From a phage: a stretch of DNA of 64,000 nucleotides. The notes below the pieces were generated by a model. It had not been told where the DNA came from, ran no database searches, and was given only the letters and a program-made list of their open reading frames with translations. Position numbers and translations under genes: made by a program. The stretch lies in the sequence record OZ346228.1; one strand, given 5' to 3'. Positions 25,528-50,495 of the stretch are shown here, one piece after another (within the stretch, counting starts at the first letter, position 1; every line of letters starts with the position of its first letter).

Positions 25528-25556
25528 TTGCGTATTAACTTAAAATCTGGTAAAAT
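25528..25556 (+). promoter_or_regulatory. sigma70-like promoter, extended -10
   Basis: TTGCGT, 17-nt spacer, TGgTAAAAT. Confidence 0.45.
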
Positions 25557-25587
25557 AACTATCATGATTGTTTAACCTGGAGGCACA

Positions 25588-30798: not shown

Positions 30799-30827
30799 TT
30801 GACTATTGTTACAAAATTTGGTAAAAT
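30799..30827 (+). promoter_or_regulatory. sigma70-like promoter, extended -10
   Basis: TTGACT, 17-nt spacer, TGgTAAAAT; after J-like gene terminator. Confidence 0.55.
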
Positions 30828-30860
30828 ACCTTGTAGAGATTTTCATACCGGAGGAGTGAC

Positions 30861-32362: not shown

Positions 32363-33049
32363 ATGGCAGAGATTAAGTCGGATGTTAACCACATCCACAC
32401 TCTGCCAGATTTTGTTCAGGGAGGTCTTGACTACCTGCCTGGAGATTTTCTGGCTGAGAAGGTTAATTTAGTCACATTCTTAACCGTATACCTTAAAAGG
32501 TTGGAGGATGTTGATAAGATGCTGGTAGGTTTGGCTGAAGGAAGATTGCTTAACAATGCCAGCGGAAGATACCTTGACGAAGTTGGTAATCAACTTGGTA
32601 TTCTTAGGAATGGACTTTCAGATGCTGATTTTCGTGCCACACTAATTATTCAGCAGGCCGCAGCATCAATGGGCGGGACTCGCGAAGATGTCATCTCCAC
32701 CTTGCGACAATTGTTCGGAAGAGACAATTTCGATACGTGGAAAGGAGACAACTTCAGGTTTGACATAAATATTAGAAAAACTTGCTTTGACATATTGCAG
32801 TCTATCGATCAGATCTTAGATATGCTACCATTGCCTTGTCATTTGCGTCTTACAGAATCGCAAGGGCAAGCTTTTGGTTTTGAAGGGGACTCTACAGCTC
32901 TTGGCTTCGGATCAGTATGGGAAGAAAACCAGTTTGGAGTTGGTGGACTGGCTACTTTGCTGTATGTTCCTGACGTAAGACCTGATTGGGACACCACAAC
33001 CATTTATTGTGAAAGTATTACAGTAAACGCAACTAGACAGGAGGGTTAA
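32363..33049 (+). CDS. baseplate/tail protein (gpI-position, hypothetical)
   Basis: 228-aa ORF directly downstream of Baseplate-J-like gene. Confidence 0.35.
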   Translation: MAEIKSDVNHIHTLPDFVQGGLDYLPGDFLAEKVNLVTFLTVYLKRLEDVDKMLVGLAEGRLLNNASGRYLDEVGNQLGILRNGLSDADFRATLIIQQAAASMGGTREDVISTLRQLFGRDNFDTWKGDNFRFDINIRKTCFDILQSIDQILDMLPLPCHLRLTESQGQAFGFEGDSTALGFGSVWEENQFGVGGLATLLYVPDVRPDWDTTTIYCESITVNATRQEG

Positions 33050-35121
33050 TGGCAACAGCTGTTTTTAAACCTTACCGTGATTACTCTACAATGGCTGCAC
33101 GGTTTCATTACCGAACAGTTCAGGATACTGCCGTTCCTGGTAGGGATTATGATCATGTTGAGGGCGATGTAACTATCCCAGTTGGGGCAACCAGTATTGA
33201 GATCCCCGTGGAAATTGTTGACAAATTACCCAACAGGTTGCCAAGAAGCTTCTTTATGGAGTTTTCATCAAAATCTCAAGGGGTGATGATTGGAACACAA
33301 AGGGCGAAATGTACAATAGTTTCAGATGAGAATCTTGACAGGATATCTTGGGATACTGTTGAGGAGAGAATGTTTCACCCAAGATATTGGGTTACAACCA
33401 CTCAGCAGACTGAAAGTACCTGTATTGTTGCAGATAACAACTGTTGTATTAACCGTTTAGTGTCAAGAACATATGGAGGTATGGCTGGGTGCATTTGGGA
33501 AACAGTTGACAAGTATGACCATTTCGGTATTGGGTTTGATGATCACTATGAGATGAGAAACACCAAGCTTTGGTTCAGAATGTCAATAACCAACGCCAGC
33601 AACTTCTCCACTCCTGAAAAGATGATTATGACTGTAGACCTTGTTGATGGCACAATCATCTATGTTCCTTTAGCTCAATATGCTGTCAGCATCTCAGAGG
33701 ATAAGAATGTTGCAGAAATTCATATTGATTTTGAGGACTGCGTCGGGATGGACCAGAACAACAACATGATGGGTGTTGATCCTCGGCAGGTGAGAAGGAT
33801 TTTAATACCGCTTATGCCTAAAGACTGGGTAAGTAATAGCACAGACCCGAGAACGGAAAATGTAAAGTGTGAGTTGCGCCTAGATCTGCTTCAGCCAGAC
33901 ACAGGCTGGAAAATGATGCAACTTAACAATATCCAGGTGAGAGAGCACGATGTTGGGATCTGCACCGCATATGACGATATGTGGAACGTGTCTCCTTTAA
34001 GGGTGTTGAACAATATCAAGCGTCTGGGCTATACCGGAACCATAAACCATTATGTTGGTATGAGTCATTATTATGACTACACATGGTCAGGAACCCAATG
34101 GTCTATAAACAGAACAGGAGCGCTAAACGCTGCAGCTTATAAATGGCATGATGATTTTATGTACAATGCCAAACGACATAACTTCGACGTTATGCAATCT
34201 GTAAGTTTTGAGCTTTTCAGCGATGCCTGCCCGTTGGAATGGACCCAAAGAGACTGGAACGATAACTACGCTAAAACAGGGTATACACCTTGTAGCTACC
34301 TCCTGTCTCCAACCATTGAAGAGGGTATGAATTTCCTTACTGCAGTATTTAAGAATTTTGCATCAGCCGCTATGAGAAACAACCTGCCAGTGATTATGCA
34401 GGTTGGTGAACCGTGGTGGTGGTACAATACCGATACTCGTAGACCTTGTATTTATGATTACCCTACAAAACAGGCGTTTTATGATGAGACAGGCGAGTAT
34501 GCATTAGATATTGGGACTATTGACGATCCTAAAACTGGCGGTGTTTACGATAAGTATGTAGCATTTTGTCGTGGTAAGCTTGGCGCTCGTATTGCGGCTA
34601 TTTCAAAGGCAATAAAGGCACACGCTGCATCAGCTCAGATGACAGCTCTGCTGTTTTTCCCAACCATTATGGAAACCGAGCTTACGCAAAAGCTTAACCT
34701 TGCTGACCAATATAAAAAGGAAGCAGGTGCTCTTGATTTCTTCTGCACCGAGTGCTACGATTGGGTGATGCAGGGAGGTATTGAAAAGGCAAAAGAGTCT
34801 GTAAACATACCTATCGTTAAGTTAGGTTGGCAACCGTCTGAAATACAATACCTTGCAGGGTTCGTTCCTAGTAAAGAGCTTGCTCCGGTATATGGCTACG
34901 ACCCAACCAGGAATTACCAAGAATTTTTATGGAGATGTATCTGCGGAAACATGGCAACCATAGAGTATAGATACCCTGAGGTAAAACAGTATGTGTGGGC
35001 ATACCCGCAAGTAATGTCTGACAGCATCACTGTTACAGCCAGAGATTCTACCGTGCTTCATATGGGGCAGGTTGCTCTGAAAGGGTATGTAGAAGATGTT
35101 GTCCCTCCAGACTTCTCATAA
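33049..35121 (+). CDS. tail protein with Calx-beta-like N-terminal domain (putative)
   Basis: 690 aa; N-terminal GRDYDHVEGDVTIPVGATSIEIPVEIVDK resembles Calx-beta motif; Trp/Tyr-rich body. Confidence 0.3.
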   Translation: MATAVFKPYRDYSTMAARFHYRTVQDTAVPGRDYDHVEGDVTIPVGATSIEIPVEIVDKLPNRLPRSFFMEFSSKSQGVMIGTQRAKCTIVSDENLDRISWDTVEERMFHPRYWVTTTQQTESTCIVADNNCCINRLVSRTYGGMAGCIWETVDKYDHFGIGFDDHYEMRNTKLWFRMSITNASNFSTPEKMIMTVDLVDGTIIYVPLAQYAVSISEDKNVAEIHIDFEDCVGMDQNNNMMGVDPRQVRRILIPLMPKDWVSNSTDPRTENVKCELRLDLLQPDTGWKMMQLNNIQVREHDVGICTAYDDMWNVSPLRVLNNIKRLGYTGTINHYVGMSHYYDYTWSGTQWSINRTGALNAAAYKWHDDFMYNAKRHNFDVMQSVSFELFSDACPLEWTQRDWNDNYAKTGYTPCSYLLSPTIEEGMNFLTAVFKNFASAAMRNNLPVIMQVGEPWWWYNTDTRRPCIYDYPTKQAFYDETGEYALDIGTIDDPKTGGVYDKYVAFCRGKLGARIAAISKAIKAHAASAQMTALLFFPTIMETELTQKLNLADQYKKEAGALDFFCTECYDWVMQGGIEKAKESVNIPIVKLGWQPSEIQYLAGFVPSKELAPVYGYDPTRNYQEFLWRCICGNMATIEYRYPEVKQYVWAYPQVMSDSITVTARDSTVLHMGQVALKGYVEDVVPPDFS

Positions 35122-35133
35122 TCAGGAGATAAA

Positions 35134-36174
35134 ATGTCAAAACCTAGTTTTCCATTAGAGATTTGGGCAGAGGAGGATCAGGTTCTGCCTAACACCCACA
35201 GACAGAACAGGCTACGCCCGATCGATGATTTGTGGAGAAAAGGTTGGGATCTTGGTCAAAAGCCATCCTGTGAAGAACTTAACTATATTTTCAATATGCT
35301 CGGAACTTGGGCAAAATACATTGCTGACGAGCAGATCCCCGCTCAAGAAGGCCGTTATCTGGTACGTGATAATAACTTGAGCGATCTTTTGAACATCCCT
35401 GTTGCCCGTAGAAACCTTGGGATTATCACTAAGGAAGAGGCAGACGCCAGGTATGTAAAAGTTACAGGTGATACAATGACAGGCCCCTTGGGGTTGCAAC
35501 GTATCAACTTTAAAGCTGCCGAGACAGATAAGGCTTGGATAGAGACAACTATTGGCCCAGATAAGACAACTCTCGACTTTGGGTTAAGTGATAATACCGG
35601 GTCGTTTGATGATGGTGGTACATCTACAGTGGATGCGTTTCGTTGGAGATTCCAGCCAACTCAGCCGGATATTAATCCAGAGTTCACTTTGATGTACCTT
35701 AACGCGATCACGGCTAATCGTGCGCTGTTGAAAGTGGTAGGCAATGTTGAAGTTGTCGATAACATGAGGTGCAATAACCTTACTATCAGCAATACAGCAA
35801 CATTCACCAACTGTAATGTGGCTAGTCAGTTGACGGCTGGGTCAGTATATGTTAATGGTGGTGCAAGTTGTGACAGTATGGTTGTAAGAAGCCAGCACTG
35901 TGTTGTCGGTAACAGAAATGTGGTGCGCTCCGTGAATGGAGTGACGGCTAACGGTAACGGTGATGTAACGATCACTATCCCGCAGACAGGTGTGCAAGAC
36001 ATCAGAATCGGTGCAAGACTTGTGGACGGCGTTTCTGAATCTCCAATCCGCAACGGCTACGTTGTCACAGGCTGGCATTTCGGTGACAAAAAAGAGATGC
36101 GTGGTTCAACCTACTGGGCAGGACCCTTACAAAAACTTGTAAATGGTCAATGGATCACTGTTAATTATGCATAG
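35134..36174 (+). CDS. tail fibre protein (copy 1)
   Basis: 346 aa; followed by Tfa-type assembly gene; N- and C-termini paralogous to 37187..38230 (ends GPLQKLVNGQWITVNYA). Confidence 0.65.
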   Translation: MSKPSFPLEIWAEEDQVLPNTHRQNRLRPIDDLWRKGWDLGQKPSCEELNYIFNMLGTWAKYIADEQIPAQEGRYLVRDNNLSDLLNIPVARRNLGIITKEEADARYVKVTGDTMTGPLGLQRINFKAAETDKAWIETTIGPDKTTLDFGLSDNTGSFDDGGTSTVDAFRWRFQPTQPDINPEFTLMYLNAITANRALLKVVGNVEVVDNMRCNNLTISNTATFTNCNVASQLTAGSVYVNGGASCDSMVVRSQHCVVGNRNVVRSVNGVTANGNGDVTITIPQTGVQDIRIGARLVDGVSESPIRNGYVVTGWHFGDKKEMRGSTYWAGPLQKLVNGQWITVNYA

Positions 36175-36188
36175 ATCGGAGGACTAGC

Positions 36189-36773
36189 ATGAAAATACTT
36201 CAAGAGTTTAAACTTTACCAACCAGGATCTGGCGAATACCACTCCAACAAGGAAACCAAGGAGCTGACCCCTCAAGAGGTAGAGGATTACACCGCATACA
36301 CTGGGTATTTTTTACGTAATGATGATGGTGATTGGTATGTGCAGTCACGAACATTACGACAAGAAAATCCAGGGTGTATCTTCCTACTTGTTGACGAGAA
36401 GGGAATTCTTAAGACATCTACAGAAGAACCTGATGCCTTATGGCCTGCTCCAGGTCTTCGTGTGGTTATCGCCAAAAAAGAAGAGGTACCAGAAAACATT
36501 ATGCTTCACCACGACGCTTTGCGTTTAGTTGGTGATGAATTTGTCACAGACAATGAATTCTTTGTTCAACAGGCAGAGGGTGTCATAGAGACAGAACTTG
36601 CTTGGGCTACTGCTAGAATTGGTGCCTATCAAGACATGATTGACCTTGAATATGATCTTACTGATGACCAGAAACGTAACATCAGAGATTTGAAAATGTA
36701 CAGGGTAAAACTTCTTGAAATAGATACATCTAAAGCCCCTGACATTTTCTTCCCAGAGCGACCTACCCTCTAA
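36189..36773 (+). CDS. tfa: tail fibre assembly protein (Tfa family)
   Basis: 194 aa; C-terminal signature YRVKLLEIDTSKAPDIFFPERP typical of lambda Tfa / P2 gpG; immediately downstream of fibre gene. Confidence 0.75.
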   Translation: MKILQEFKLYQPGSGEYHSNKETKELTPQEVEDYTAYTGYFLRNDDGDWYVQSRTLRQENPGCIFLLVDEKGILKTSTEEPDALWPAPGLRVVIAKKEEVPENIMLHHDALRLVGDEFVTDNEFFVQQAEGVIETELAWATARIGAYQDMIDLEYDLTDDQKRNIRDLKMYRVKLLEIDTSKAPDIFFPERPTL

Positions 36774-36784
36774 GAGGAGGTGTT

Positions 36785-37099
36785 GTGGAGTTGGATTTGG
36801 CGGCATTGTACGGTATCTGCATGGGTACCGTTGTCCCGATCTGTGTATGGGCTTTCAACCAGTGGCACACCAAATGGAAAGACATTTCCAAGAGGTTGGA
36901 TGAGCTGGAGAAAGACCTCATCTTAGTGAAAAACAGTATGGTTACAAAAGATAAACTTGATTCCGTTATAGAGACCCGGTTAAGCAAGCTAGAGGCCGAT
37001 ATTAACGACCTTAAGCAGGATGTCAGGACAGATGTCTCCGGCATCAGAGCCGATGTACAAAAGATTTTGCACATGCTCGTAGAGCATAGTAAAAGGTAA
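36785..37099 (+). CDS. small membrane-anchored coiled-coil protein (hypothetical)
   Basis: 104 aa, GTG start after RBS AGGAGG; hydrophobic N-terminus LAALYGICMGTVVPICVWAF followed by heptad-like helix. Confidence 0.35.
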   Translation: MELDLAALYGICMGTVVPICVWAFNQWHTKWKDISKRLDELEKDLILVKNSMVTKDKLDSVIETRLSKLEADINDLKQDVRTDVSGIRADVQKILHMLVEHSKR

Positions 37100-37127
37100 A
37101 CAAAGGTCAGAACGGAAAGGACTCCTC

Positions 37128-37156
37128 TTGCATTTTGTTCCCTAAAGTGTTAAAAT
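37128..37156 (+). promoter_or_regulatory. sigma70-like promoter, extended -10
   Basis: TTGCAT, 17-nt spacer, TGtTAAAAT; upstream of second tail fibre gene. Confidence 0.5.
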
Positions 37157-37186
37157 AGTCCTAAGGAATTTTCTCAGGAGAACGTG

Positions 37187-38230
37187 ATGACTAAACCAGT
37201 TATCCCTCTTGATATTTGGGCCAATCAGGATGTTGTGCTTGAAAATACGGGAGAGTTGAATAAGTCTCAACCAAAAAAAGAAGAGAGATTGAAAGGTTGG
37301 GATATGACACAAAGAGTGGCATGTGAAGTTGTTAACTTTGAACTTCACATGCTTTCTGCGTGGTTAAAGCATTTAACAGAAGATGTTGTCCCAGGATGGG
37401 ATAATAGATTCTTAAGGGTCACTAATAATCTAGCAGACGTTCCAGACAAAGCTGCTGCACGTCAAGTTCTCAATGTATACTCGCCTGAAGAAATGGACGA
37501 TCTGTATGTTGACAAGTCTGGAGACATAATGACTCAGACTCAAACTTTAGGCCTTCAAAGAATCGAGTTTGCATCTGCGTCAACAGACAATGCGGCAATA
37601 TATACCACCATAACTCCAGACAAGACGACGATGGACTTCTGGATTATGGACAACATCGGTGGTGCTGACGGCACAGACCTTGATGATCCTTCTCACCAAA
37701 TAGACGGGTTCCGTTGGAGATTTCAACCTTCTGGTGGGCAGCCTGTGTTTTCGGCTATGAAGCTCAATGCTATAACTGCCAACCGTGCAAGACTGGCTAT
37801 CCAAGGAAATCTTGAATGCAACGATGCAAAAAGTTCCTCTGCAAATGCCAATGCGGTCACGATACCAAGAGCCACTGTTAACGGACAACAATCCTGCGGA
37901 AGCGCTCAAATAGGTGGAAGAGTTGATTGTAACGATGAAACCGTTAGAGGCCAATATGCAACCGTTGGTGGAAGAAACGTGGTCCGCAGGGTAAACGGTA
38001 ACAGCGCAGACGGTAGTGGTAACCTTACTGTCCCTATGCCCAGTAGAGGGGTTGACGATGTAAGGATAGCGAACCGTTTCAAAACCACCTACAGAGAGTC
38101 AAGGGTCTACCCTGGACATGTGATGTGCTCTGGTAACTACGCTTATAAACACCCTTATCAAGGTGATTACTGGACAGGTGCTATCCAAAAACTTGTAAAC
38201 GGTCAATGGATCACTATATCTTATGCTTAA
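37187..38230 (+). CDS. tail fibre protein (copy 2, paralog)
   Basis: ATG 37187 after RBS CAGGAG and own promoter TTGCAT-17-TGtTAAAAT; N-terminus PLDIWA and C-terminus GAIQKLVNGQWITISYA shared with copy 1. Confidence 0.6.
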   Translation: MTKPVIPLDIWANQDVVLENTGELNKSQPKKEERLKGWDMTQRVACEVVNFELHMLSAWLKHLTEDVVPGWDNRFLRVTNNLADVPDKAAARQVLNVYSPEEMDDLYVDKSGDIMTQTQTLGLQRIEFASASTDNAAIYTTITPDKTTMDFWIMDNIGGADGTDLDDPSHQIDGFRWRFQPSGGQPVFSAMKLNAITANRARLAIQGNLECNDAKSSSANANAVTIPRATVNGQQSCGSAQIGGRVDCNDETVRGQYATVGGRNVVRRVNGNSADGSGNLTVPMPSRGVDDVRIANRFKTTYRESRVYPGHVMCSGNYAYKHPYQGDYWTGAIQKLVNGQWITISYA

Positions 38231-38241
38231 AAAGAGGGTAA

Positions 38242-38508
38242 ATGAAACTAACTCAGTTTTTATGGGGACTGGTTGCGGAATCTGATGACCCTACGAAAGT
38301 ATCCCAATCTAAGCTATGGTCGAACATAGGCATGGTGGTGATGACTGGGGTGTTTATTCATATGGGGTATAATGATACGCTTCCTGAATGGTATGCGTGG
38401 ATATATGCACCTTCAGTAGCCTGCCCCCAGCTTATTAGCAAATTCATCTCGCTCCGGTGGGGTTGCCAGCACCCTGACCACGTTAAAAACGAAGAGCAAA
38501 AAGCTTAA
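38242..38508 (+). CDS. small hydrophobic protein (hypothetical)
   Basis: 88 aa with central hydrophobic segment NIGMVVMTGVFIHMG; follows second fibre gene. Confidence 0.3.
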   Translation: MKLTQFLWGLVAESDDPTKVSQSKLWSNIGMVVMTGVFIHMGYNDTLPEWYAWIYAPSVACPQLISKFISLRWGCQHPDHVKNEEQKA

Positions 38509-40311: not shown

Positions 40312-43300
40312 ATGCTTCCAATCCCTTTGCTAAAACTTGGTCGTCATTTCCTCGATAAGAGGGGTGGAATTAAGGAACTTGCTGTTCTGTCATACCCAAT
40401 AGACAACAGTGATGGTACAAGCAACACAGTATCCTATGTAAATAGCTTAGCTATACTTTTTGATGATGGTCAGCTTAATATTACTGGCTATAACAAGTTC
40501 GGAGAGTGCCGCACTGGGGATCGTAGCCCTATAAACTATCCGAGCGAAACAGCCTGGAATGTTGATCATGTGTGGAGAGCAGACCGCGCGTTTGTGATCC
40601 GGACTTTTGATAACCAGTTTTTCTACATCGGCTGCACTGCAGGTCTTATCGGATCCACTGCGGCAGGCGGTAATGATGTTTGCGTAAACGAGTGGACACC
40701 ACTCCCAGAGCAGATTGTTAAAGGATTGCACCTTGACACCCACCCAGAACGCCTTATTGAGGTGATGGGCGGTATTAACAACACTGTCTGGGTTATTGCA
40801 GAGGCAGAAGGTACTGGCATACTTAACCTGTATGGATCTGGTAACAACACCTACGGATCTTTGCATGTAGATAAAAATCAGCATGCAACCCCTGTAAAGA
40901 TTGGTGAGACATCGGAAAATCCTGAAACAGGCCCTTGGAAAAACCCAAGCATCAACTGTGAGGTGCATGACAACTCTGTTATTTTCGGTGGTCCTAGGGG
41001 TTTCTGGATTGCTGGATACGACTTTCTGAGAAATAACAGTAGAAACGACCTTGTTTGGCCTCCTGTGCAGATTACTCGTAACGATTTGAGGGGCATTCCT
41101 GCAGATGAGGAGTGGAAAGGGTTTATGTGTGGTCCTAACGGGGCAGTAATTGCTACACAGAGGATGCATAGACCCGATGACCAGCAGCTTGTTAACGTAT
41201 TTTATGGTCAAAACATTTGGGGAGATGATACATGGCGGGAACTGAATATCACCTACACCCATGAGGTAATGATGGCTCGTGGGTACGGCACAAGTGGCAT
41301 TTTCTTCAATAATGGCACTAAGCAGTATCGTGGGTTCTCTCGCAACTTATGTAATGATATTGGTGCACAATCTGCAAACAATAGTCCTAGGGCCGATTTT
41401 ATCCACTATCAAGCTCTTGCTACAGCTAAATATGTTGAGCAACGCCTGCCAGTCAGCTGGACAGAGAGTGTTTATTTCCAAGGCATCCACAGAGAAGGTT
41501 TCTTAGGGACCTTTACTGTTGTTAATGGTAAACTTTGGTGGTCAGGTATCCCAAGGGGAAGTTTTACAGGCTCTAATAACCTGTTTGGCGGCAGACTTAA
41601 TAGTCAGGGGTTCACAGAGGTTCCTGAGAATTGGTATAAAAATGTCCCAGTAGACAGTTGGGGCGTTGATGATATTTTCGACGTTAATGGTGTTAGCAGT
41701 GTTAGCAATATCTACATTGGTGACACGGTCAAGATGAAATTGAAGCCTCAGCCAGAGGGAGCTACGTTCATCATTGACAAGATTGAACTGGTGAATGCTG
41801 CAGGTACGGTTGTTACAGATGCAAATTACCAATTCTCCACCAACTGGAACCACGGCGGGGCCAACGAAGTTGTTGTTACCCAGTATAACAGAAATGTTAA
41901 CAGACGTGGCCTGTACTCTGTAAAAATAACCTATCATGACAAGCATGGCACAGGCAGAACTCACACGACAAGGACTTTGAACTGGAACACCATAGTTCCT
42001 GCGTATCCGTCCAACGGCAAGTGGCATACCGTTGGTAGAAACAAGCAGTTCCATGTTAACGATACTGTATACTTTGGGCTGAATGGGACCCAGCCTGCAG
42101 TAGAAGGGGATACATCGTATATGGTCAGACTCCACAGAATGGATGCTGGATCAGTCACTTATGATGTGACCCAAGAGATCTACGATCAAAGACGCGCCAC
42201 GTATGACAATATTGTGAAAACACAAGCCTTGTGGGAGTTCAATCCTAATGGCAAGGGTGGTAAAATGTTGCAGGTTAATGAGCAGAACGGAACGTCGTTG
42301 ACTGTTCACGAACACCCAGACCCTTGGCCTGATCCTGGAAAACCTCACCCGGGAGCTCGTACACTGAAAATTGTCAGCCATGATGCAGGATATTTCGGAA
42401 TACGCTGGGAAGCTACAGTAAGATATGTCGACGGGACAACAAACAACATAGGGATTACACTTGGCGGCACTAGTGAAGATAGCTCGCTGAAAATTGCCTA
42501 CACGCCCAGAGGTATCTCTATTGATAATATGGATGTTGTTCGCAATGGTTACGGCGATGTGAATGTCAAAGTTACTCTTGGCGAACATCTTGGTGGGGAA
42601 AGGATCATCATGTATGCCTTTGATCATGATCCACGCACCAATGGAACTTATGCAAATCAGGCATGGAGTTACCTGATAAATGCACCTGAGCCGAATACTA
42701 AAGAGTTCTACTATGGCATGAAGCGAGATGTGTGCAAGAAAACAGGAACACATGACTGGATTGCTATCTGCGTTAAAGATGAGCGCACAGCTTGGGATGA
42801 GCCTGTTAACAGATGGTTCATAGGTATTCCTACCAGAAGTGATAAGTATGTCGCAGAATATATTGTATGCATGGGCGGTACCAACCTAAACATGTGTTGG
42901 AACGAAGATGTAAACAAATACTCTGATTATGACTATATGAGGGATTACTCTTGTAATTTGTGGTTTAACCAAACTACAGGTTACCCTCCAAGACAGGCGA
43001 GAGTAAACCCTGCAATCTTCACAGACACGCAGGTTTTCTTGACAAAACAGGCCAACGAGGTTCAGACCTTCAAGAATAAATACGATCCTAACAAGTGGTT
43101 CTACAACTGTTACGGCGCATTTTTCTGGGGACCTGGTGAGTTACCTGGTGGTGGATCTTGCTTGAATGAGGCAACTTACGCAAGTGACTACATCATGGGG
43201 CAGGTCAAGAAGTATAAGATAATCCCCGGTCCTGAGACTTTGGGCAATGCCGTTGACCCTTATATCATCATGACTGCACTGAGATCAAACATGGATGGGA

Positions 43301-45948
43301 CATCCATGTCCATGCAAATTCCGGTAACAAACGGATACAAACGTGTTGTGATGATCATTAAGTGCGACCTGATAGGTAAACAAGTTCTTGCAGAAAACGG
43401 GACATCCACACATCCTTTTGAGATCGCTCTGCACTATCAGTTTGCTGACTCACCTTTTGCAGGGGATAAGAGAATATCTGATACAGACGCACAGCGTTGT
43501 AAGAAAGTATTGTTGGGTGCAGGTTGGTGGTGGTATGAGTTTGATTTAACAGACAAATTCACCGACACGTCTAAAGTTGTAACAGGACTTCGTCTAGACC
43601 TTGGCGAGAACATGCACAAAGCTGTTTGTGATGGCACCTATGGTGACCCTACAATATACCTAAAATATGTTTCTTTTGAGCATCCGGAAGATGTTGTCTA
43701 CGGTCCAAAACTGAGATTGTTTGGCAGCTGGATTGCAAAAGATAGGGTAGGCATGGGTAAGAAGGTAAGAGGGTTCTTGGTTGATGCAGGAACAGAAGAC
43801 ATGCTGGTTAATGCAGTATGGCCTGAATTACCTGGGACTCAGTGGGACAACTCAGCCAAATCTATAAACTGGTTTAACATTCATAGGGCCATGTGGACCA
43901 CTAACTGCTACTTGTGGAGAGAGCTTAACGATCAGGCCTTTGGATTCAGCGAGGGTAGAAGGATGGCGATCATTTGCTGGACAACACTGCAAAGATGTTA
44001 TGACCATGACTATGAGATTGGGGGCAGGGCATGGAAAAATATCAGGGATAGAATCATAACCAATTTTGCAGACGACAACGGTGGTGGAGCACATAACTTT
44101 GGCACAAGCCGACTCATCCATTTGAACGGATCCTCAGCCTACAAGAAAGAAGGTTACTCTGGGTCTATGATCGAGCGGGGTCTGGTGAAAGATGCTCGCG
44201 TATTGATGGGCCAGCAACTTGCTGCCGCAGTAGGTCCCAGCGCAGTGCAGTCGGTTAAACCAGCGTGGTTCGATATTCCATTGTGGTCACCCGGAACACC
44301 GGGAACTGCTGCAATCAACCCTACCACTGGGGATCTGGAAATCTCCTGGGAAGACCTGAAGCAGGTCGGTGGTTGGGACAAAACAGGGTATCAGGTTCAA
44401 TGGTGGAGGGCTGACGGATCTTTAGCCGCTGATGAGTTTGTTAAGGACAATTTCTACACTATGTCCTCTGCAAAAGCACAGCAATTATTTGGTCAGGCAA
44501 CTCCGTCAACGATCACCATGTCTATGTGCTGTAAAGACAACAGGACTGGAGCTTTGGGGCCAAGGGTTGCTAAAGTTTTCTCAGGTATTAAATGGAATCT
44601 ACCTGTCCAAAGTATTTCATGGAAGCAAATAGGTGATAACAAGCTGCTGGTTACCCCTGCCTGTCAGTTCAACGCAACTCTTAACGTTGATCCTGCTGTT
44701 GCGGCAAACTCAGCTAAAGCTTCTGACTTCTCTGTGTCTAACACTGCTATGGCAGATGTGAGGAAGATTGACACGCTGAACGCCAGAATTACCTGTAAAA
44801 ACACTTATGGCACATTCCAAATCATCAACAACTTCACAGATGCTGATTCTAAGGTAGTGAGGACAGCAAGCCAGACTCTGAGTTTAGGAACTCTGGCCTA
44901 TGCGGCCCTGATCACCGAACAGTCGGCAACACTCCAAGGAGGTGGTGTAGGCAAGTCCATTACAACACCTGTGTGGAAGCCAAATGAGTGGGTTGTGTTT
45001 GATTTGACTGTGGACTTCTCCAGCGATAATAACTGGACATGGGTAAGGAATTGTTTGTCACAGTTGATGGGCGGTCCAAGCTCCGTTAGTGATAGTCACG
45101 ACTCTACTGACCCGAGTGTGTTCCAGGTAGGTAAAACTCACCCAGAGACTGGAGAAACGTTGCCTGACAGGAAGTATGCTTTGGTTTGCATCTCTTACGG
45201 GAAGGCAGATGTCGCCTTCTCAGGGACACACACTTATAACGGAACCTACAACTTCTCAAGGAAGTATAGTCTCAAAGCAGGGAACATTATAGACGAGGTT
45301 GGTGCGCTGTATAATCCGGGCAACGGCATAGGGATTGTTGGTGGTAAACTGCAGATGCAGGAACCTTCTATTACCCCTTCCAACGTATCCGGGATTAGAA
45401 AGACTTGGGAAAGTAGTAATACCAACATTGCAACAGTGGATGCCACCACAGGACTGGTAACATTTAAAGCTACTGGGAATGTCACCATAAAGTTTGTAGT
45501 TACTGATGATGTAGGGCGCAAAACGTCTTCAACATCTTTTACTGTCAAACAGATGGCACCACAGTGGAGAATGTGGATAGGTACAGCAACAAACGGGGCA
45601 TACCCTAATCCGTCAGGTACTTCTGGTATGAAGACTTTCTCTACAAGCAAACCGATGGAGTACGGCAGCGGTCCTAAGGTAGGGCAGATGGTGTACTTTG
45701 GTGCGTATATTCCTGAAATTATAGGGCTTCCTAGAAGTCAGCTTCAGTTGCTGTTTGGGGCTGGTGTTGACGATCTTGCCACTTTCGGGTATAGCGACAA
45801 CATCGAGGCTGCAAGGAGTTCAGGATGGGTAGGGTTCAGAATGGAGTCTGGAAAGGAAGGCAGGATTCTAGGGACAGCCTCTATAGGTGTTATGTTCCCT
45901 GGTGACCAGCAGTATCGTCTAGAAGCCTACGCAACCTTTTCTCGTTAA
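40312..45948 (+). CDS. giant virion-associated protein with Ig-like domain(s)
   Basis: 1878-aa uninterrupted ORF; C-terminal region contains bacterial Ig-like motif (SNVSGIRKTWESSNTNIATVDATTGLVTFKATGNVTIKFVVTDDVGRKT); ends at bidirectional terminator. Confidence 0.5.
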   Translation: MLPIPLLKLGRHFLDKRGGIKELAVLSYPIDNSDGTSNTVSYVNSLAILFDDGQLNITGYNKFGECRTGDRSPINYPSETAWNVDHVWRADRAFVIRTFDNQFFYIGCTAGLIGSTAAGGNDVCVNEWTPLPEQIVKGLHLDTHPERLIEVMGGINNTVWVIAEAEGTGILNLYGSGNNTYGSLHVDKNQHATPVKIGETSENPETGPWKNPSINCEVHDNSVIFGGPRGFWIAGYDFLRNNSRNDLVWPPVQITRNDLRGIPADEEWKGFMCGPNGAVIATQRMHRPDDQQLVNVFYGQNIWGDDTWRELNITYTHEVMMARGYGTSGIFFNNGTKQYRGFSRNLCNDIGAQSANNSPRADFIHYQALATAKYVEQRLPVSWTESVYFQGIHREGFLGTFTVVNGKLWWSGIPRGSFTGSNNLFGGRLNSQGFTEVPENWYKNVPVDSWGVDDIFDVNGVSSVSNIYIGDTVKMKLKPQPEGATFIIDKIELVNAAGTVVTDANYQFSTNWNHGGANEVVVTQYNRNVNRRGLYSVKITYHDKHGTGRTHTTRTLNWNTIVPAYPSNGKWHTVGRNKQFHVNDTVYFGLNGTQPAVEGDTSYMVRLHRMDAGSVTYDVTQEIYDQRRATYDNIVKTQALWEFNPNGKGGKMLQVNEQNGTSLTVHEHPDPWPDPGKPHPGARTLKIVSHDAGYFGIRWEATVRYVDGTTNNIGITLGGTSEDSSLKIAYTPRGISIDNMDVVRNGYGDVNVKVTLGEHLGGERIIMYAFDHDPRTNGTYANQAWSYLINAPEPNTKEFYYGMKRDVCKKTGTHDWIAICVKDERTAWDEPVNRWFIGIPTRSDKYVAEYIVCMGGTNLNMCWNEDVNKYSDYDYMRDYSCNLWFNQTTGYPPRQARVNPAIFTDTQVFLTKQANEVQTFKNKYDPNKWFYNCYGAFFWGPGELPGGGSCLNEATYASDYIMGQVKKYKIIPGPETLGNAVDPYIIMTALRSNMDGTSMSMQIPVTNGYKRVVMIIKCDLIGKQVLAENGTSTHPFEIALHYQFADSPFAGDKRISDTDAQRCKKVLLGAGWWWYEFDLTDKFTDTSKVVTGLRLDLGENMHKAVCDGTYGDPTIYLKYVSFEHPEDVVYGPKLRLFGSWIAKDRVGMGKKVRGFLVDAGTEDMLVNAVWPELPGTQWDNSAKSINWFNIHRAMWTTNCYLWRELNDQAFGFSEGRRMAIICWTTLQRCYDHDYEIGGRAWKNIRDRIITNFADDNGGGAHNFGTSRLIHLNGSSAYKKEGYSGSMIERGLVKDARVLMGQQLAAAVGPSAVQSVKPAWFDIPLWSPGTPGTAAINPTTGDLEISWEDLKQVGGWDKTGYQVQWWRADGSLAADEFVKDNFYTMSSAKAQQLFGQATPSTITMSMCCKDNRTGALGPRVAKVFSGIKWNLPVQSISWKQIGDNKLLVTPACQFNATLNVDPAVAANSAKASDFSVSNTAMADVRKIDTLNARITCKNTYGTFQIINNFTDADSKVVRTASQTLSLGTLAYAALITEQSATLQGGGVGKSITTPVWKPNEWVVFDLTVDFSSDNNWTWVRNCLSQLMGGPSSVSDSHDSTDPSVFQVGKTHPETGETLPDRKYALVCISYGKADVAFSGTHTYNGTYNFSRKYSLKAGNIIDEVGALYNPGNGIGIVGGKLQMQEPSITPSNVSGIRKTWESSNTNIATVDATTGLVTFKATGNVTIKFVVTDDVGRKTSSTSFTVKQMAPQWRMWIGTATNGAYPNPSGTSGMKTFSTSKPMEYGSGPKVGQMVYFGAYIPEIIGLPRSQLQLLFGAGVDDLATFGYSDNIEAARSSGWVGFRMESGKEGRILGTASIGVMFPGDQQYRLEAYATFSR

Positions 45949-45995: not shown

Positions 45996-46196
45996 TTAGT
46001 AATACTCCCAACATGCCCCATCTTCAGACGGCTTGACGCGCTTACCTTTATGGTCAACATAGGTATAGCCACAACCTTCACAAATAACAGGTGCTGCATA
46101 GCCTTCCTTCCACTGATCCTCAGTGATCAGACCTTCCAAATCTTTGCAGTCAAAGCCAAACAACTCTTCAGAGCAATCTTTACAAAAATCAGCCAT
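45996..46196 (-). CDS. small Cys-rich zinc-ribbon-like protein
   Basis: 66 aa with paired Cys motifs (CKDC, CEGCG); last gene of reverse-strand island before the bidirectional terminator. Confidence 0.4.
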   Translation of the reverse strand: MADFCKDCSEELFGFDCKDLEGLITEDQWKEGYAAPVICEGCGYTYVDHKGKRVKPSEDGACWEYY

Positions 46197-46199
46197 TTC

Positions 46200-46664
46200 T
46201 CAGTCCTCGCATTTAACAAATTTTTCTATAGATCCACCAAGCACAGCTTGTTGTTTGATGGCACTTTCTTCATCATAGTGGATAGACTTATGTTCCGTAC
46301 CTCCAAACTTACCTGTGTGGAAGGTGTGCACCCAAATCTCTTTAGGAAGGGATTTATTCTCTTCCTCCACCAACTCCCACATACCCCACAAGTGATCTGT
46401 GATATCTCTGATGAAATATCCCTCGCCGAGGTTTGTATTCACACTGTAAGCTGATTCGTGATCTCCGCAAATATAACGGAAGGCAGTGTACTCTTTACCT
46501 GGTGTGAAGTGAGTATCCATTAGTATGGCTGTTAAAGAATAAGGGTCTCGAAAGCCCAAGAACTTTAGTTTAACAATTTCGACATTTACATCTGCAAGAT
46601 TATCCATGACGATCTCCTCTGTTTGGTTGGTGAGAATTATATATAGATCTGGTGGTGGCGTCAA
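46200..46664 (-). CDS. hypothetical protein
   Basis: 154-aa ORF, tightly spaced with neighbours on the reverse strand. Confidence 0.4.
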   Translation of the reverse strand: MTPPPDLYIILTNQTEEIVMDNLADVNVEIVKLKFLGFRDPYSLTAILMDTHFTPGKEYTAFRYICGDHESAYSVNTNLGEGYFIRDITDHLWGMWELVEEENKSLPKEIWVHTFHTGKFGGTEHKSIHYDEESAIKQQAVLGGSIEKFVKCED

Positions 46665-46768
46665 GCTTAATTTTAAGAGATCTGAGAGGGTATTTTATTC
46701 AGGAAGGCAATCGCACAGGGTGGAGAAATTTATGAAGGCACAGGCCTCGTTTGAGGCCTTAAATTCTA

Positions 46769-47149
46769 TTATGACACTTTGACATAGCGCTCTGACAAAG
46801 CTGGGAAGCCAAAAGTAGTGCCTATACTACCATAGGCTATCCACCATTGGAGTTCATCGTGACACCATTTTCCGATCAGGAAGGTGCTGGGATAGCGGGT
46901 CAGTATTTTGGCATAAGCTTTAGGATCTGCATCTTCTGGGATAATGATGCTTGGAATATCTTTGTTATGACCACAGCAGCAGTTTAGCGTTTTCAAACCT
47001 GCTGCCCACAAACTCATGATAGGCTTAGCCATACACTTATCAAGGCACACACGTTTTTTGCCGTCACGAAGATTTTTAGGCACATCAACGATAACATTTG
47101 GATGCTTGGCACCTTTTACTTTCCAATTATAGGATTTACACTTGCACAT
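46769..47149 (-). CDS. Cys-rich hypothetical protein
   Basis: 126 aa with CKCK and NCCCGH clusters suggesting metal binding. Confidence 0.4.
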   Translation of the reverse strand: MCKCKSYNWKVKGAKHPNVIVDVPKNLRDGKKRVCLDKCMAKPIMSLWAAGLKTLNCCCGHNKDIPSIIIPEDADPKAYAKILTRYPSTFLIGKWCHDELQWWIAYGSIGTTFGFPALSERYVKVS

Positions 47150-47199
47150 TTAATCAGTCTCCGTCTAGAAAGCCGCACTATACGTTTTTGAGGTATACT

Positions 47200-47370
47200 T
47201 TACTTAAAGTCTTTATCACCTGCCACGATTGCATGAATCCACTCATTGTGATGCTCAATAGCGGTGAGATGTAACATGATGTAGTGATCGTCATTGCCAA
47301 ACATGATATGATAGGCTTTGGCAGCATTTTGATATAACTTCCACATCAGGTAATGATATCTTCGCCTCAT
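47200..47370 (-). CDS. small hypothetical protein (56 aa)
   Basis: ORF below the 60-aa track cutoff, read from reverse complement (MRRRYHYLMWKLYQ...GDKDFK); fills an otherwise gene-free 226-bp gap. Confidence 0.25.
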   Translation of the reverse strand: MRRRYHYLMWKLYQNAAKAYHIMFGNDDHYIMLHLTAIEHHNEWIHAIVAGDKDFK

Positions 47371-47375
47371 GGCTC

Positions 47376-47846
47376 TTACTCCGGTTCAGGATCTGGGTAA
47401 TCTTCAATAATAAAGGGCCATCCGTTCCGCTTAGCCTCAGACTTATACTCAATCTCCTTCATTGCAAACTCTAACTGATTCTTAGCCGGAATACATGCCG
47501 GAGAATCATCAATCCAGATATCTGGGTAGATATCAAACTGCGCCAGGTAGGCTGCCTTCTGAACACCACCTGTGTAGAACACACCAACATCGAGCTCCTT
47601 GCGCCAATACTCAATGTCTACATTGTCTTGAGTAATGAATCGGAAAGTCACAAGGTAGACTGTCCACCCCTCCTTCTTCAGATCCCTGATCAGGCGGGAG
47701 AAGATGAAAGGGCTCGCATTAAACGTTCCATCAAAGTCGATGGCAATGATGTGCGTGCCGTGGCGAGTCTCATATGGATTGCTCGTGGTAAGATTGCTGT
47801 AATTAAAAGGGACTTCTTCCCCGCAGTAGCTGTAGTCCATATTCAC
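47376..47846 (-). CDS. HAD-superfamily phosphatase-like protein
   Basis: 156 aa; HAD motif I IAIDFDGT and motif IV-like IWIDDSP. Confidence 0.55.
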   Translation of the reverse strand: MNMDYSYCGEEVPFNYSNLTTSNPYETRHGTHIIAIDFDGTFNASPFIFSRLIRDLKKEGWTVYLVTFRFITQDNVDIEYWRKELDVGVFYTGGVQKAAYLAQFDIYPDIWIDDSPACIPAKNQLEFAMKEIEYKSEAKRNGWPFIIEDYPDPEPE

Positions 47847-48118
47847 ACCTTCTCGTTGATAAATTTACGGGCGGTTTGGTGAGTTGTTTCTGCTGTCTTC
47901 AGAATGATATTAATTTTATCGTCAAGATCATTCATCTCGGCAGTTAATTCAGGAATCTCTCCGGCATGCATGGTGAAATCATACATAGACATGCCCAAGA
48001 TCTCATTGATGCGGCGGTTGCATTCTGCAGCACGCTGGTTCATTTTCCAAGCTAACACCAAAGCCTCCTGCGTAGCCTCTAGTGCAAAATCTAATACGTC
48101 GGCCTCTTCTTTCGTCAT
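47843..48118 (-). CDS. hypothetical helical protein
   Basis: 91 aa; start overlaps upstream stop; RBS AGGAGAG on reverse strand. Confidence 0.4.
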   Translation of the reverse strand: MTKEEADVLDFALEATQEALVLAWKMNQRAAECNRRINEILGMSMYDFTMHAGEIPELTAEMNDLDDKINIILKTAETTHQTARKFINEKV

Positions 48119-48175
48119 CTTAGTCTCTCCTGTTGTATTGTTGGTAGGTGTATGAATACCTTATAACTCACCTTT

Positions 48176-48742
48176 TTATTCAAACTGCAATAGTAAGTCC
48201 ACCACCGCGCTAGGTCTGTCAACAAATTCCCCAGGTCCACATGCCCACAGAGGGTATCCGTCTACATACCGCCAAATCCAACCTGCAGTGTGGAGTTCGA
48301 GCAGGGCAGTACCGTCCTTACTGTCAACCACTCTTTCCCACAGTGTCGGGCAGCGAAGCTTGAGGATCGGATCCCCTCCCTTATACCCATCCATGTAGAT
48401 ACCCATTGCAAAGTTCAGCATCATCTTTTTGTGCACTGATCTTTTACTGAGGGTACTCATCACTTCCTCTTTGTGAATGTTTGTAAGCTTCTCCTTGGCT
48501 ACCCGCAGATCGTTGCAACCATTGTTCAGCAGATCTTCCAGACACTTGATCCGAAGGTCGTGAATGTCTTTGTCGTGTACCGTTGGCACAGGGTCGTAGC
48601 GGTATAGCACTGTTGATACAAGGTTGCTCGGGTGTGGGTCTGACAGCAACCCATAACCCCAATACTCTTCTGTATCTGAAAGGACAAGACACCCAATGTC
48701 TCTGTCAAGCTTTCCTGTGTTGTAAGCCACATTGACCGCCAT
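48176..48742 (-). CDS. hypothetical protein
   Basis: 188-aa ORF within reverse-strand operon. Confidence 0.4.
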   Translation of the reverse strand: MAVNVAYNTGKLDRDIGCLVLSDTEEYWGYGLLSDPHPSNLVSTVLYRYDPVPTVHDKDIHDLRIKCLEDLLNNGCNDLRVAKEKLTNIHKEEVMSTLSKRSVHKKMMLNFAMGIYMDGYKGGDPILKLRCPTLWERVVDSKDGTALLELHTAGWIWRYVDGYPLWACGPGEFVDRPSAVVDLLLQFE

Positions 48743-48744
48743 GA

Positions 48745-48990
48745 CTATAGCTCCACTAGCAAAGTGCTTTCAAAGTGACGTTCATGCAGACCGTTGTAAG
48801 GGACCACTTCCACAACGCCATCACGGACATATGGGGCCATCATGGTGGTATAATCTCCAAACGGGTTGGTATTGTCACTAACCACAACCACCTTCTGCCC
48901 TTCCTTGGCAGAGTGCCAAATAGATCTGCACTTCATCAGGTGTTCGAGAGCCCCAGGTAAAATTTTGTTACGTTCTTTACGGGTCTTCAT
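48745..48990 (-). CDS. small hypothetical protein (possibly related to the small paralog family)
   Basis: 81 aa; contains G-x-KVVVV..D hydrophobic beta-like core similar to the 49453..50480 paralogs. Confidence 0.35.
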   Translation of the reverse strand: MKTRKERNKILPGALEHLMKCRSIWHSAKEGQKVVVVSDNTNPFGDYTTMMAPYVRDGVVEVVPYNGLHERHFESTLLVEL

Positions 48991-49436: not shown

Positions 49437-49452
49437 GGCTCTCTCCTTTTTG

Positions 49453-49689
49453 TTAATCTTCGTAAATCAGGATTTCTGCTTTAGGTTTTCGTGCTTTCAT
49501 GTCCAGCTCTATCCAGTGCACCATAGCTGTTTCAAGAAAAACAGCCTGGATGCATCCGTCCTCAGCAGCGTGTCCTAGCAGCATAACAAGATCTTCTCCT
49601 TCGTCATCTGCACCACGAACATACAGAATCTCCCCGGGTTCAAAATCTTTAACAACCTGATTGTTGGATAATTTACGAATTTTCGCCAT
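49453..49689 (-). CDS. small paralog family member 4
   Basis: 78 aa; shares K-rich N-terminus, PG[TE]-hydrophobic motif (EPGEILYV) and acidic C-terminus with the three upstream 87-aa genes. Confidence 0.5.
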   Translation of the reverse strand: MAKIRKLSNNQVVKDFEPGEILYVRGADDEGEDLVMLLGHAAEDGCIQAVFLETAMVHWIELDMKARKPKAEILIYED

Positions 49690-49690
49690 A

Positions 49691-50480: not shown

Positions 50481-50495
50481 AAATAACCTCCTCTC

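Follow-up and report, generated by a model that had tools for sequence, protein, structure and literature searches.

The locus examined here raises a simple question: what does a phage do with two related tail fibre genes, lying on the same strand, and a single gene for a tail fibre assembly chaperone (Tfa)? We analysed the two fibre genes (STF1 and STF2) and their neighbours in the window, i.e. the whole stretch of 64,000 nucleotides, together with the corresponding loci of related phages.

Results

The locus belongs to a known type

The window is 99.5% identical in nucleotide sequence to Escherichia phages naswa and magaca and 98–99.5% identical to many Vequintavirus (rV5-like coliphage) genomes, and 114 phage records span at least 80% of the region. 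By these matches, the window comes from an rV5-like E. coli myovirus (Vequintavirus), and the region is its locus for short tail fibres; gene order, gene sizes and sequence agree with the rV5 gp33/gp32/gp30 locus, with no material difference. All open reading frames (STF1, Tfa, the 104-aa gene, STF2 and the 88-aa gene) were recovered at the coordinates given (Table 1).

In rV5, gp33 and gp30 are 42% identical (Kropinski 2013, PMC3606486), and the virion proteomics proposed earlier as a check is already published: mass spectrometry of rV5 virions detected gp33, gp30 and the chaperone gp32 (PMC3606486). As the two-paralogue arrangement has been described for the genus (PMC3606486; Maffei et al. 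2021, PMC8594841), paired fibres with a single chaperone are no discovery; they are a real, ordinary and known feature of Vequintavirus. The same two papers (PMC3606486, PMC8594841) make no mention of the replacement of a 157-aa gene, a promoter conserved ahead of STF2, fibre 3′ ends that evolve in concert or a shift of the STF2 docking domain. Our additions (the gene replacement, the promoter of STF2, and 3′-end conversion with lineage-specific tract lengths) are modest and do not define a new type of system.

Table 1. Features of the short tail fibre locus, with positions in the window.
Feature	Position	Strand	Remarks
Baseplate wedge protein, rV5 gp35	32363..33049	+	Probable docking platform for short tail fibres
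STF1, short tail fibre paralogue 1, rV5 gp33 orthologue, 346 aa	35134..36174	+	phrog_4465 tail fibre, E 1.8e-171
STF1 30-nt tip tract, encodes QKLVNGQWIT	36130..36159	+	29/30 nt identical to STF2 tract
Tfa, tail fibre assembly chaperone, rV5 gp32 orthologue, 194 aa	36189..36773	+	PF02413 Caudo_TAP
104-aa protein, N-terminal TM segment and coiled coil, rV5 gp31	36785..37099	+	phrog_5345 (unknown function), E 4e-48
Predicted sigma-70 extended −10 promoter of STF2	37128..37157	+	TTGCAT, 17 nt, TGtTAAAAT(A)
STF2, short tail fibre paralogue 2, rV5 gp30 orthologue, 347 aa from ATG	37187..38230	+	phrog_4465, E 5.4e-166
STF2 30-nt tip tract	38186..38215	+	29/30 nt identical to STF1 tract
88-aa membrane protein, rV5 gp29	38242..38508	+	phrog_1322 membrane protein, E 5.6e-32

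The two fibres are old paralogues

STF1 and STF2 are 43% identical across their full length (BLASTP, E 2e-95), far above chance. The N-terminal (PLEIWA/PLDIWA) and C-terminal strings from which shared ends had been claimed are present exactly as given. The picture of shared ends around a different interior needs correction: the genes align end to end, and conserved blocks (LGLQRI, PDKTT.DF, FRWRFQP, LNAITANRA and GxRNVVRxVNG) occur all along both fibres. Similarity is lowest in the C-terminal head (codons 288–332, 40% nucleotide identity), directly 5′ of the tip tract, where the head core of STF2 (CSGNYAYKHPYQGD) is unlike that of STF1.

Nucleotide identity in the body of the genes is 50–54% and synonymous sites are saturated; the split between the paralogues is old. 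Both genes evolve under purifying selection (pN 0.09–0.14 vs. pS 0.82–0.83), and neither frame is interrupted in 116 rV5-like records or five diverged lineages; non-synonymous evolution of STF2 is 1.7–4 times faster than that of STF1. In a phylogenetic tree, STF1 and the single-copy fibres from other genera of Vequintavirinae form a group with 100% bootstrap support; the STF2 branch falls outside all single-copy fibres, a position that long-branch attraction could have made too deep. Saturated synonymous sites and this branching together rule out a recent tandem duplication. Given possible long-branch attraction, an old duplication with acceleration and an acquisition from a distant relative are inseparable here as the origin of STF2.

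STF2 occupies the slot of a membrane-protein gene

The observation that Tfa follows only the first fibre holds: the Caudo_TAP gene (PF02413 at residues 121–192, E 9e-12; phrog_136, E 2.2e-36) adjoins STF1, and tblastn with the Tfa protein found no further copy anywhere in the 64-kb window. The first-pass annotation had also set the pair of STF1 and Tfa against that of STF2 and an 88-aa hydrophobic protein; the adjacency is correct, but the contrast is misleading, as the 88-aa gene belongs to an ancestral block. In all single-fibre relatives, three genes for membrane proteins, the 88-aa orthologue among them, form a conserved block 3′ of Tfa. The gene for the 104-aa protein, whose N-terminus is hydrophobic, is kept directly 3′ of Tfa in Avunavirus, Seunavirus, Mydovirus, Henunavirus and Certrevirus, and is an ancestral neighbour of Tfa. 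STF2 sits where all single-fibre relatives have a 157-aa membrane-protein gene, after which their 88-aa orthologues come; STF2 was inserted into the block in place of the 157-aa gene. Because STF2 lies in that slot, the 88-aa protein is an ancestral neighbour rather than a partner of STF2.

The 157-aa product is a polytopic membrane protein (phrog_7451) encoded between the 104-aa and 88-aa genes in single-fibre phages and absent from rV5-like phages. A tblastn search for it elsewhere in the window gave a best E of 0.065; the gene occurs in 107 phage records, and none of the 40 records listed is a Vequintavirus. Only 16 records with the 157-aa gene bear an Escherichia name, whereas 97 of the 117 records that match the rV5-type locus do. 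The window search and the record survey rule out relocation of the gene.

The 88-aa protein was considered as a chaperone of STF2 and rejected: it has no Caudo_TAP similarity (Pfam), contains a hydrophobic segment, and is found in single-fibre phages that have Tfa. Its phi92-like homologue (37% identity, E 3e-19) is encoded upstream of the wedge genes and adjoins no fibre gene. Pfam gave no match for STF1, STF2, the 88-aa protein or the 157-aa protein.

Docking domain and head of the fibres

Searches of the PDB with phmmer matched STF1 residues 1–108 to the phiTE short tail fibre (9cuy_c, E 1.4e-19) and STF2 residues 1–83 to the same fibre (E 2e-8); both proteins have an N-terminal domain homologous to the wedge-docking domain of phiTE (residues 3–92), which in phiTE attaches the fibre to Wedge 1 (PMC11972413). 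The wedge protein gp35 encoded upstream matches the phiTE “Wedge 1 protein” (9mjn_dh, E 1.6e-66; phmmer, PDB) and also Phi92_gp146. A family profile matched the N-terminus of the phiTE fibre (E 2e-25) and the C-terminus of Mu gpS (residues 438–502, E 1.5e-10). STF1 residues 286–343 match residues 440–501 of Mu gpS (5yvq, E 1.7e-6); STF2 alone gave no significant phmmer match to Mu gpS in the PDB, and the assignment of its head type therefore rests on its alignment with STF1.

STF1 and all single-copy fibres from five genera have 26 invariant columns in the docking domain; the STF2 clade has other residues in 13 of them, and these replacements are conserved inside that clade. Positions at which the paralogues differ include P19, I30, W34 and Y51 in STF1, which are E19, K30, R34 and F51 in STF2. 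STF1 lies directly 3′ of the wedge genes save for an extra gene, gp34, as in Avunavirus, and is followed by Tfa; STF2, encoded 3′ of the 104-aa gene and without its own Tfa, departs from this placement between wedge genes and Tfa. A Caudo_TAP chaperone is encoded beside the fibre, in one copy for the two fibres. An AlphaFold2 model of STF2, made as a monomer of a trimeric fibre and from a nine-sequence alignment, had a pLDDT of 31 and a pTM of 0.21 and was uninformative.

A conserved predicted promoter precedes STF2

The earlier suggestion that fibre 2 has its own promoter is plausible: a putative extended −10 site with a recurrent and conserved motif lies upstream. It consists of TTGCAT (37128–37133), a 17-nt spacer and TGtTAAAAT (37148–37156), and lies 30 nt upstream of the STF2 ATG. 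The window has seven sites with the motif TGNTAAAATA, every one of them on the + strand, where 0.89 are expected; five of the seven are intergenic (outside open reading frames of at least 80 aa), each with a TTG −35 element at matching distance. Upstream of STF2, TTGCAT and TGcTAAAATA are kept in four diverged lineages despite a diverged intergenic spacer, and the predicted motif agrees with the rV5 late-gene motif TggTAaAAtA (PMC3606486). A generic promoter scanner found no + strand site; it missed this one because only three of the six positions of its −35 hexamer match, and the promoter was recognised only via the recurrent TGnTAAAATA motif. STF2 heads a transcription unit that contains 581-aa and 1878-aa fibres.

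The 3′ ends of the fibre genes are kept alike

The 30-nt tip tracts of the two genes, identical at 29 positions in the window, are identical at all 30 in rV5 and CarlMeissner, and in a diverged lineage (L011/L012) both carry the same synonymous variants. In rV5-like phages, identity between the paralogues reaches 86–88% in the tip, against the lower value in the body; in an uncultured sister lineage (L013–L015), it is 79–89% across the head, including about 90 identical nt in L015. Within a genome, both fibres share synonymous variants. On this nucleotide evidence, the 3′ ends of STF1 and STF2 evolve in concert, over the tip tract in rV5-like phages and over the whole head in the sister lineage, a pattern that fits a single chaperone serving both fibres. 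The tips resemble each other in part through a motif common to the whole family, Q-K-x-(V/I)-N-G-x-W-x-(T/V), which the phiTE short tail fibre and Mu gpS also have. This motif is partly structural; identical amino acids in the tips are not in themselves evidence of a common chaperone.

Discussion

We consider it likely that the locus encodes two old paralogues served by one Tfa, with a separate promoter for STF2, 3′ ends kept alike and, probably, two LPS-core epitopes as targets: STF1 and STF2 would be trimeric fibres of the Mu gpS type, both built into the virion; each would combine an N-terminal domain of the wedge-docking type with a Mu gpS-like C-terminal head that needs Tfa; the single Tfa encoded after STF1 would serve both, recognising a C-terminal region that recurrent gene conversion and selection keep similar in the two genes; and STF2 would additionally be transcribed from its conserved extended −10 promoter. 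Mu Tfa, as summarised in PMC9608196, binds the fibre C-terminus through its N-terminal domain. As the heads differ in rV5-like phages, the two fibres probably recognise the terminal receptor, the LPS core, at different epitopes. A more specific proposal, which we put forward tentatively and with less confidence than the general one, is that one chaperone, conversion of 3′ ends from STF1 to STF2 that maintains compatibility, and a shifted docking of STF2 together allow both fibres to be mounted at different sites of the baseplate.

The dual-fibre arrangement proposed at the outset agrees with the data: both genes are intact, lie on the same strand and are under purifying selection, and both rV5 orthologues are found in virions (PMC3606486). 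A role in alternative host range, also suggested at the outset, is hypothetical. That one copy might instead be a decaying pseudogene, or a recent tandem duplicate without a function of its own, is extremely improbable; only the duplication itself speaks for this, and it is already refuted by the conservation data, namely the intact frames in the 116 rV5-like records and the five diverged lineages and a pN far below pS, with which the saturated synonymous sites between the paralogues and the presence of both proteins in virions (PMC3606486) agree. Equally improbable is an invertible or phase-variable switch of the Mu G-segment or P1 C-segment type, in which STF1 and STF2 would be alternative forms. 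The fibres and the chaperone are indeed homologous to Mu GpS/GpU, but both genes lie on the same strand, an orientation that suffices to refute a switch; long flanking inverted repeats are lacking (the longest has 19 nt at 74%), none of nine proteins scanned between 30861 and 40263 has an invertase or recombinase domain, and the arrangement is fixed in all relatives. The first-pass annotation was right to set a Mu-type switch aside.

Two further explanations concern what STF2 does. It is possible, though we think it rather unlikely, that STF2 does not compete as a second receptor-binding fibre for the same site but has been neofunctionalised: this copy would dock at another place on the baseplate, or serve as an adaptor for the lateral fibres gp28 and gp27 encoded downstream, with which it would have a common promoter. 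The clade-conserved replacement of half of the 26 invariant docking columns, the non-synonymous rate 1.7–4 times that of STF1, the branching outside all single-copy fibres, the place of STF2 at the head of the unit containing the 581-aa and 1878-aa fibres, and a cryo-EM report of unassigned density attached to another fibre (PMC12143355) all point this way. However, STF2 retains a Mu gpS-like head and the tip, and its N-terminus still matches the wedge-docking domain of phiTE (E 2e-8); moreover, in the sister lineage its head has repeatedly been overwritten by the STF1 head, as expected of a tip that binds receptor or chaperone and not of an adaptor interface. Less likely still is that STF2 makes no use of Tfa and folds alone or with another factor, such as one of the adjacent small membrane proteins: no Tfa gene lies 3′ of STF2, its head core differs from that of STF1, and record OR062943.1 labels the 88-aa gene “tail fiber assembly protein” by similarity to phi92 gp144. 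Against a role of the 88-aa protein stand the absence of Caudo_TAP similarity, its hydrophobic segment and assignment to the phrog_1322 membrane proteins, its presence in single-fibre phages that already have Tfa, and its location in phi92-like phages away from any fibre gene; against independence from Tfa in general stands the similarity of the fibre 3′ ends, which extends even to synonymous sites.

The evolutionary details sharpen the question to the position of the second fibre on the baseplate, which lies beyond the reach of cryo-EM at 7–9 Å: in maps of rV5-like baseplates (Bas49/Bas54) at that resolution, each wedge has a single density assigned to a short tail fibre, which could be either paralogue (PMC12143355). 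All rV5-like phages of the BASEL collection share an identical dependence on the LPS core (PMC8594841), and no phenotype therefore yet separates STF1 from STF2. The short tail fibres of rV5-like phages are thought to form the last, irreversible contact with the LPS core; if both fibres are mounted, at different sites, the phage would have a constitutive double specificity for its terminal receptor without a switch. Such phages infect many E. coli O-types and are for that reason frequent in collections for therapy and biocontrol. For host-range engineering it is useful that both paralogues are conserved, under selection and probably dependent on one chaperone; a head swap would need to retain the shared tip.

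Among known systems, the single-fibre Vequintavirinae and the phi92-like phages (phiTE gp236, PDB 9cuy; phi92 gp147 “fiber III”, PMC13450770) share with the present locus a homologous docking domain, the QKxxNGxW end and a Tfa gene directly 3′. The single-fibre loci also have the same neighbours, with wedge genes upstream and membrane-protein genes and a phiTE_241-type fibre downstream; they differ in having one fibre, six trimers per baseplate and the 157-aa gene, and the fibre of phiTE, a flagellotropic phage, differs further by a long coiled coil and Ig-like domains. With Mu GpS/GpU (PDB 5yvq), the fibres share a homologous C-terminal head and part of the shaft, and a Caudo_TAP chaperone; as in the Mu G segment (S/U and S′/U′), one genome would encode two alternative fibre specificities. 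In Mu, however, every fibre variant has its own chaperone, and DNA inversion determines which single pair is expressed, whereas here the genes are fixed, the chaperone gene is single, and both fibres are co-expressed and, in rV5, present in the virion. The resemblance to T4 gp12, which is attached to the baseplate and binds irreversibly to the LPS core, is a functional analogy drawn in the literature: Kropinski et al. 2013 (PMC3606486) reported similarity by HHpred, and no gp12 chain was among the phmmer matches of STF1 or STF2 in the PDB at E up to 1. T4 also differs in having one gp12 and an unrelated chaperone, gp57A.

Results

The first-pass annotation had described duplicated tail fibre genes with a tail fibre assembly chaperone (Tfa) after the first only, and this observation was correct: the ORFs lie where they were placed, the two short tail fibre paralogues STF1 and STF2 can be aligned end to end (43% identity, E 2e-95), and the 194-aa protein is assigned to Caudo_TAP. 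No second Tfa was found in the window. The accompanying description of shared ends with a different middle was not fully accurate: conserved blocks span the entire alignment; similarity is lowest in the C-terminal head (codons 288-332, 40% nucleotide identity), directly after which the near-identical tip follows.

Both fibres belong to phrog_4465. STF1 matches two solved structures: through residues 1-108 the N-terminus of the phiTE short tail fibre (E 1.4e-19), and through residues 286-343 the head of Mu gpS (E 1.7e-6); the sole structure match of STF2 is the phiTE N-terminus (E 2e-8), and the fibre family profile matches both structures (E 2e-25 for phiTE, E 1.5e-10 for Mu gpS). Upstream of the fibres lies a homologue (E 1.6e-66) of phiTE Wedge 1, the protein bound by the phiTE fibre (PMC11972413). 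The 690-aa protein (rV5 gp34) carries a Calx-beta domain and two domains known from the N4 non-contractile tail sheath protein, the N-terminal one and the TIM barrel (PF23844, PF23845, E 4e-80). In the literature, this protein is linked to N4 glycan receptor binding. Its gene is present in Vequintavirus and Avunavirus loci and not in Seunavirus loci.

Features of the two-fibre locus and of related sequences (window coordinates unless a contig is named)
Feature	Position	Strand	Basis or remark
Wedge 1 homologue	32363-33049
690-aa protein	33049-35121
STF1 (fibre 1), 346 aa	35134-36174	+	ORF
Tfa, 194 aa	36189-36773	+	Caudo_TAP PF02413, E 9e-12
104-aa protein, block gene 1	36785-37099	+	ORF; TM + coiled-coil; weak similarity to Rz-like spanin/lipoprotein PHROGs
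157-aa polytopic protein, block gene 2			phrog_7451, Pfam Phage_phiTE_239; lost in rV5-likes
STF2 (fibre 2), 347 aa	37187-38230	+	counted from ATG preceded by good AGGAG ribosome-binding site
88-aa protein, block gene 3	38242-38508	+	ORF; phrog_1322
1878-aa fibre gene	40312-45948
Intergenic promoter-like sites	7757-7766, 11281-11290, 25548-25557, 30819-30828, 37148-37157	+	TTGnnn - ~17 nt - TGnTAAAATA
Further motif site	3245-3254	+	inside long ORF
Extended 88-aa homologues	L013 7076-7432; L014 6024-6404; L015 7067-7447

Many Vequintavirus (rV5-like) E. coli myoviruses share 98-99.5% identity with the 3.6-kb region, and 114 of the 117 phage records that match it cover at least 80% of its length. 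The same five genes are gp33, gp32, gp31, gp30 and gp29 in rV5, and are annotated in BASEL phage CarlMeissner, in order, as short tail fiber protein, tail fiber chaperone, hypothetical, short tail fiber protein and hypothetical. Between 16 and 21 records named "Campylobacter phage" (host C. jejuni; MG065672.1, MG065639.1 and others) carry rV5-like or phi92-like coliphage sequence. Their fibre shows 99.7% identity, so these may be coliphages that were mislabelled or present as contaminants.

Searching a large protein collection with STF2, followed by contig look-ups, recovered further two-fibre lineages with the gene order kept: contigs L011/L012, with an STF2 78% identical to that of the window, and contigs L013-L015, with 46-49% identity. 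The latter (Logan SRR24653873 and SRR32732957; ENA ERZ28596771; 14-135 kb) represent a Vequintavirus sister lineage with the same two-fibre locus, one of whose STF2 clusters at 90% identity (P0005) holds 172 member sequences. In the fibre body (codons 1-287), nucleotide identity between paralogues is 50-54% in every genome, whereas orthologues share 68-90%; STF1 and STF2 use the same codon at only about one third of identical residues; and a neighbour-joining tree places the STF2 clade (97% bootstrap) outside STF1 and all single-copy Vequintavirinae fibres (100% bootstrap). Together, these three patterns indicate that the split between STF1 and STF2 is old. The pair could have arisen by an old duplication with acceleration or by acquisition from a distant relative, two origins that long-branch effects render inseparable. 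STF2 evolves faster than STF1 at non-synonymous sites, with both fibres under purifying selection (pN 0.09 and 0.14, pS ~0.82, window vs. L011). The STF2 of L013-L015 has no relative in GenBank phage records closer than the rV5-like phages (best 49.2%).

The 3' ends of the two genes show concerted evolution. Against a background of ~50%, paralogue identity rises to 86-88% over the last 14 codons in the window and L011, and the tract CAAAAACTTGTAAATGGTCAATGGATCACT (36130-36159 and 38186-38215) is identical at 29 of 30 positions in the window and at all 30 in rV5 and CarlMeissner. In L011/L012, the synonymous variants GTC and CAG, which set this lineage apart from rV5-likes, are common to both paralogues. 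In L013-L015, the similarity extends over the whole head (codons 288-332), where the paralogues share 79-89% identity, with ~90 nt of perfect identity in L015, and lineage-specific amino-acid changes are common to both fibres within each genome. The STF2 heads of this lineage group with STF1 in a C-terminal tree (95% bootstrap), which indicates that conversion ran from STF1 to STF2. Because the tip motif is also conserved more broadly in the family, Mu and phiTE among its carriers, amino-acid identity alone is of little weight, and it is the nucleotide pattern that carries the argument.

We compared the locus with single-fibre genera, namely Avunavirus (Av-05, 24-2-1), Seunavirus (GAP31, NINP13076), Mydovirus (KPP-1), Henunavirus (Hena1) and Certrevirus (phiTE). 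In every such genus the order is fibre, Tfa, 104-aa membrane/coiled-coil protein, 157-aa polytopic membrane protein, 87-91-aa membrane protein (annotated at 55 aa in Hena1) and phiTE_241-type fibre (581-600 aa where the gene is seen whole). The rV5-likes lack the 157-aa gene, absent also from the window, and have an 87-nt spacer followed by STF2 in its exact place. The 157-aa protein occurs in 107 phage records; no Vequintavirus is among the 40 listed, and only 16 are Escherichia-named, against 97 of the 117 matching the rV5-type locus.

The position of its orthologue in single-fibre relatives marks the 88-aa protein as an ancestral neighbour rather than an STF2 partner. In phi92-like phages the homologue (37% identity, E 3e-19) has no adjoining fibre gene. 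The protein is labelled "tail fiber assembly protein similar to phi92-like gp144" in OR062943.1 (85767-86033; 3445-3711 of locus L017); we rejected such a function, as Caudo_TAP similarity is absent. The Vequintavirinae tail fibre operon holds a conserved block of small membrane proteins (104-aa and 88-aa genes in the window; 5638-6701 of L002, the locus of a relative, and equivalents), whose placement is reminiscent, by analogy only, of T4, where holin gene t follows gene 38. In the uncultured two-fibre lineage L013-L015, the 88-aa homologue has a C-terminal extension of 30-38 residues rich in RYSD/YSD repeats.

The spacer before STF2 contains TTGCAT (37128-37133), 17 nt and TGtTAAAAT (37148-37156), ending 30 nt ahead of the ATG. 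Both hexamers are conserved in four diverged lineages while the remaining spacer has changed, and prediction and conservation both support the earlier proposal that STF2 has its own (predicted) promoter. The window contains seven copies of the motif TGNTAAAATA, all on the + strand, where 0.89 would be expected; five sites lie outside ORFs of at least 80 aa, and each of these has a suitably spaced TTG -35 element and the next ORF start ~15-43 nt downstream. It is the same motif as TggTAaAAtA, described for rV5 late genes in their upstream regions (Kropinski et al., PMC3606486), and the sites look like plain sigma-70 extended -10 promoters.

In the docking domain (residues 1-70), STF1 and the single-copy fibres of five genera agree without exception at 26 columns. 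At 13 of these the STF2 clade carries substitutions that are conserved within the clade (P19 to E/D, W34 to R/Q and Y51 to F, for example), and elsewhere it retains 8 of 12, 12 of 17 and 4 of 5 invariant columns. The sequence pattern suggests an altered attachment interface in STF2.

Discussion

The two-fibre arrangement is the short tail fibre locus already documented for rV5-like phages, a known feature of the genus. The first-pass reading of a dual-fibre, non-invertible arrangement is correct. In rV5, gp30 and gp33 share 42.3% identity and both resemble T4 gp12 by HHpred; the virion proteomics proposed as a check on that reading is already published, with gp30, gp32 and gp33 among the proteins detected by mass spectrometry (Kropinski et al. 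2013, PMC3606486). Maffei et al. (PMC8594841) found allelic variation almost absent at the short tail fibres of rV5-like BASEL phages, all of which required the LPS core (waaC, waaG), and LL12 genetics (PMC7229145) are consistent with this requirement.

A modest further angle lies in the probable use of one chaperone for two fibres, upheld by gene conversion, and in where on the baseplate the second fibre is placed. Tfa proteins of the Mu type use their N-terminal domain to bind the fibre at its C-terminal region (summary in PMC9608196); on the simplest reading, both fibres would depend on the single Tfa, and their tips would be kept compatible with it. The relatives phiTE and phi92, which have a single fibre, carry six trimers docked at the wedge periphery (PMC11972413; PMC13450770). 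STF2 may either occupy another place on the baseplate or compete for the six Wedge 1 sites with STF1. In 7-9 A maps of two rV5-like phages, RBPseg saw density for a short tail fibre whose C-terminus is Mu-like and could not distinguish the paralogues (PMC12143355).

Outside the locus, GC and AT skew change sign at about 46000-53000 of the window, where the long + strand structural operon ends behind the 1878-aa fibre gene and a block of - strand genes lies, as in rV5, which has a bidirectional terminator between gp26 and gp27.
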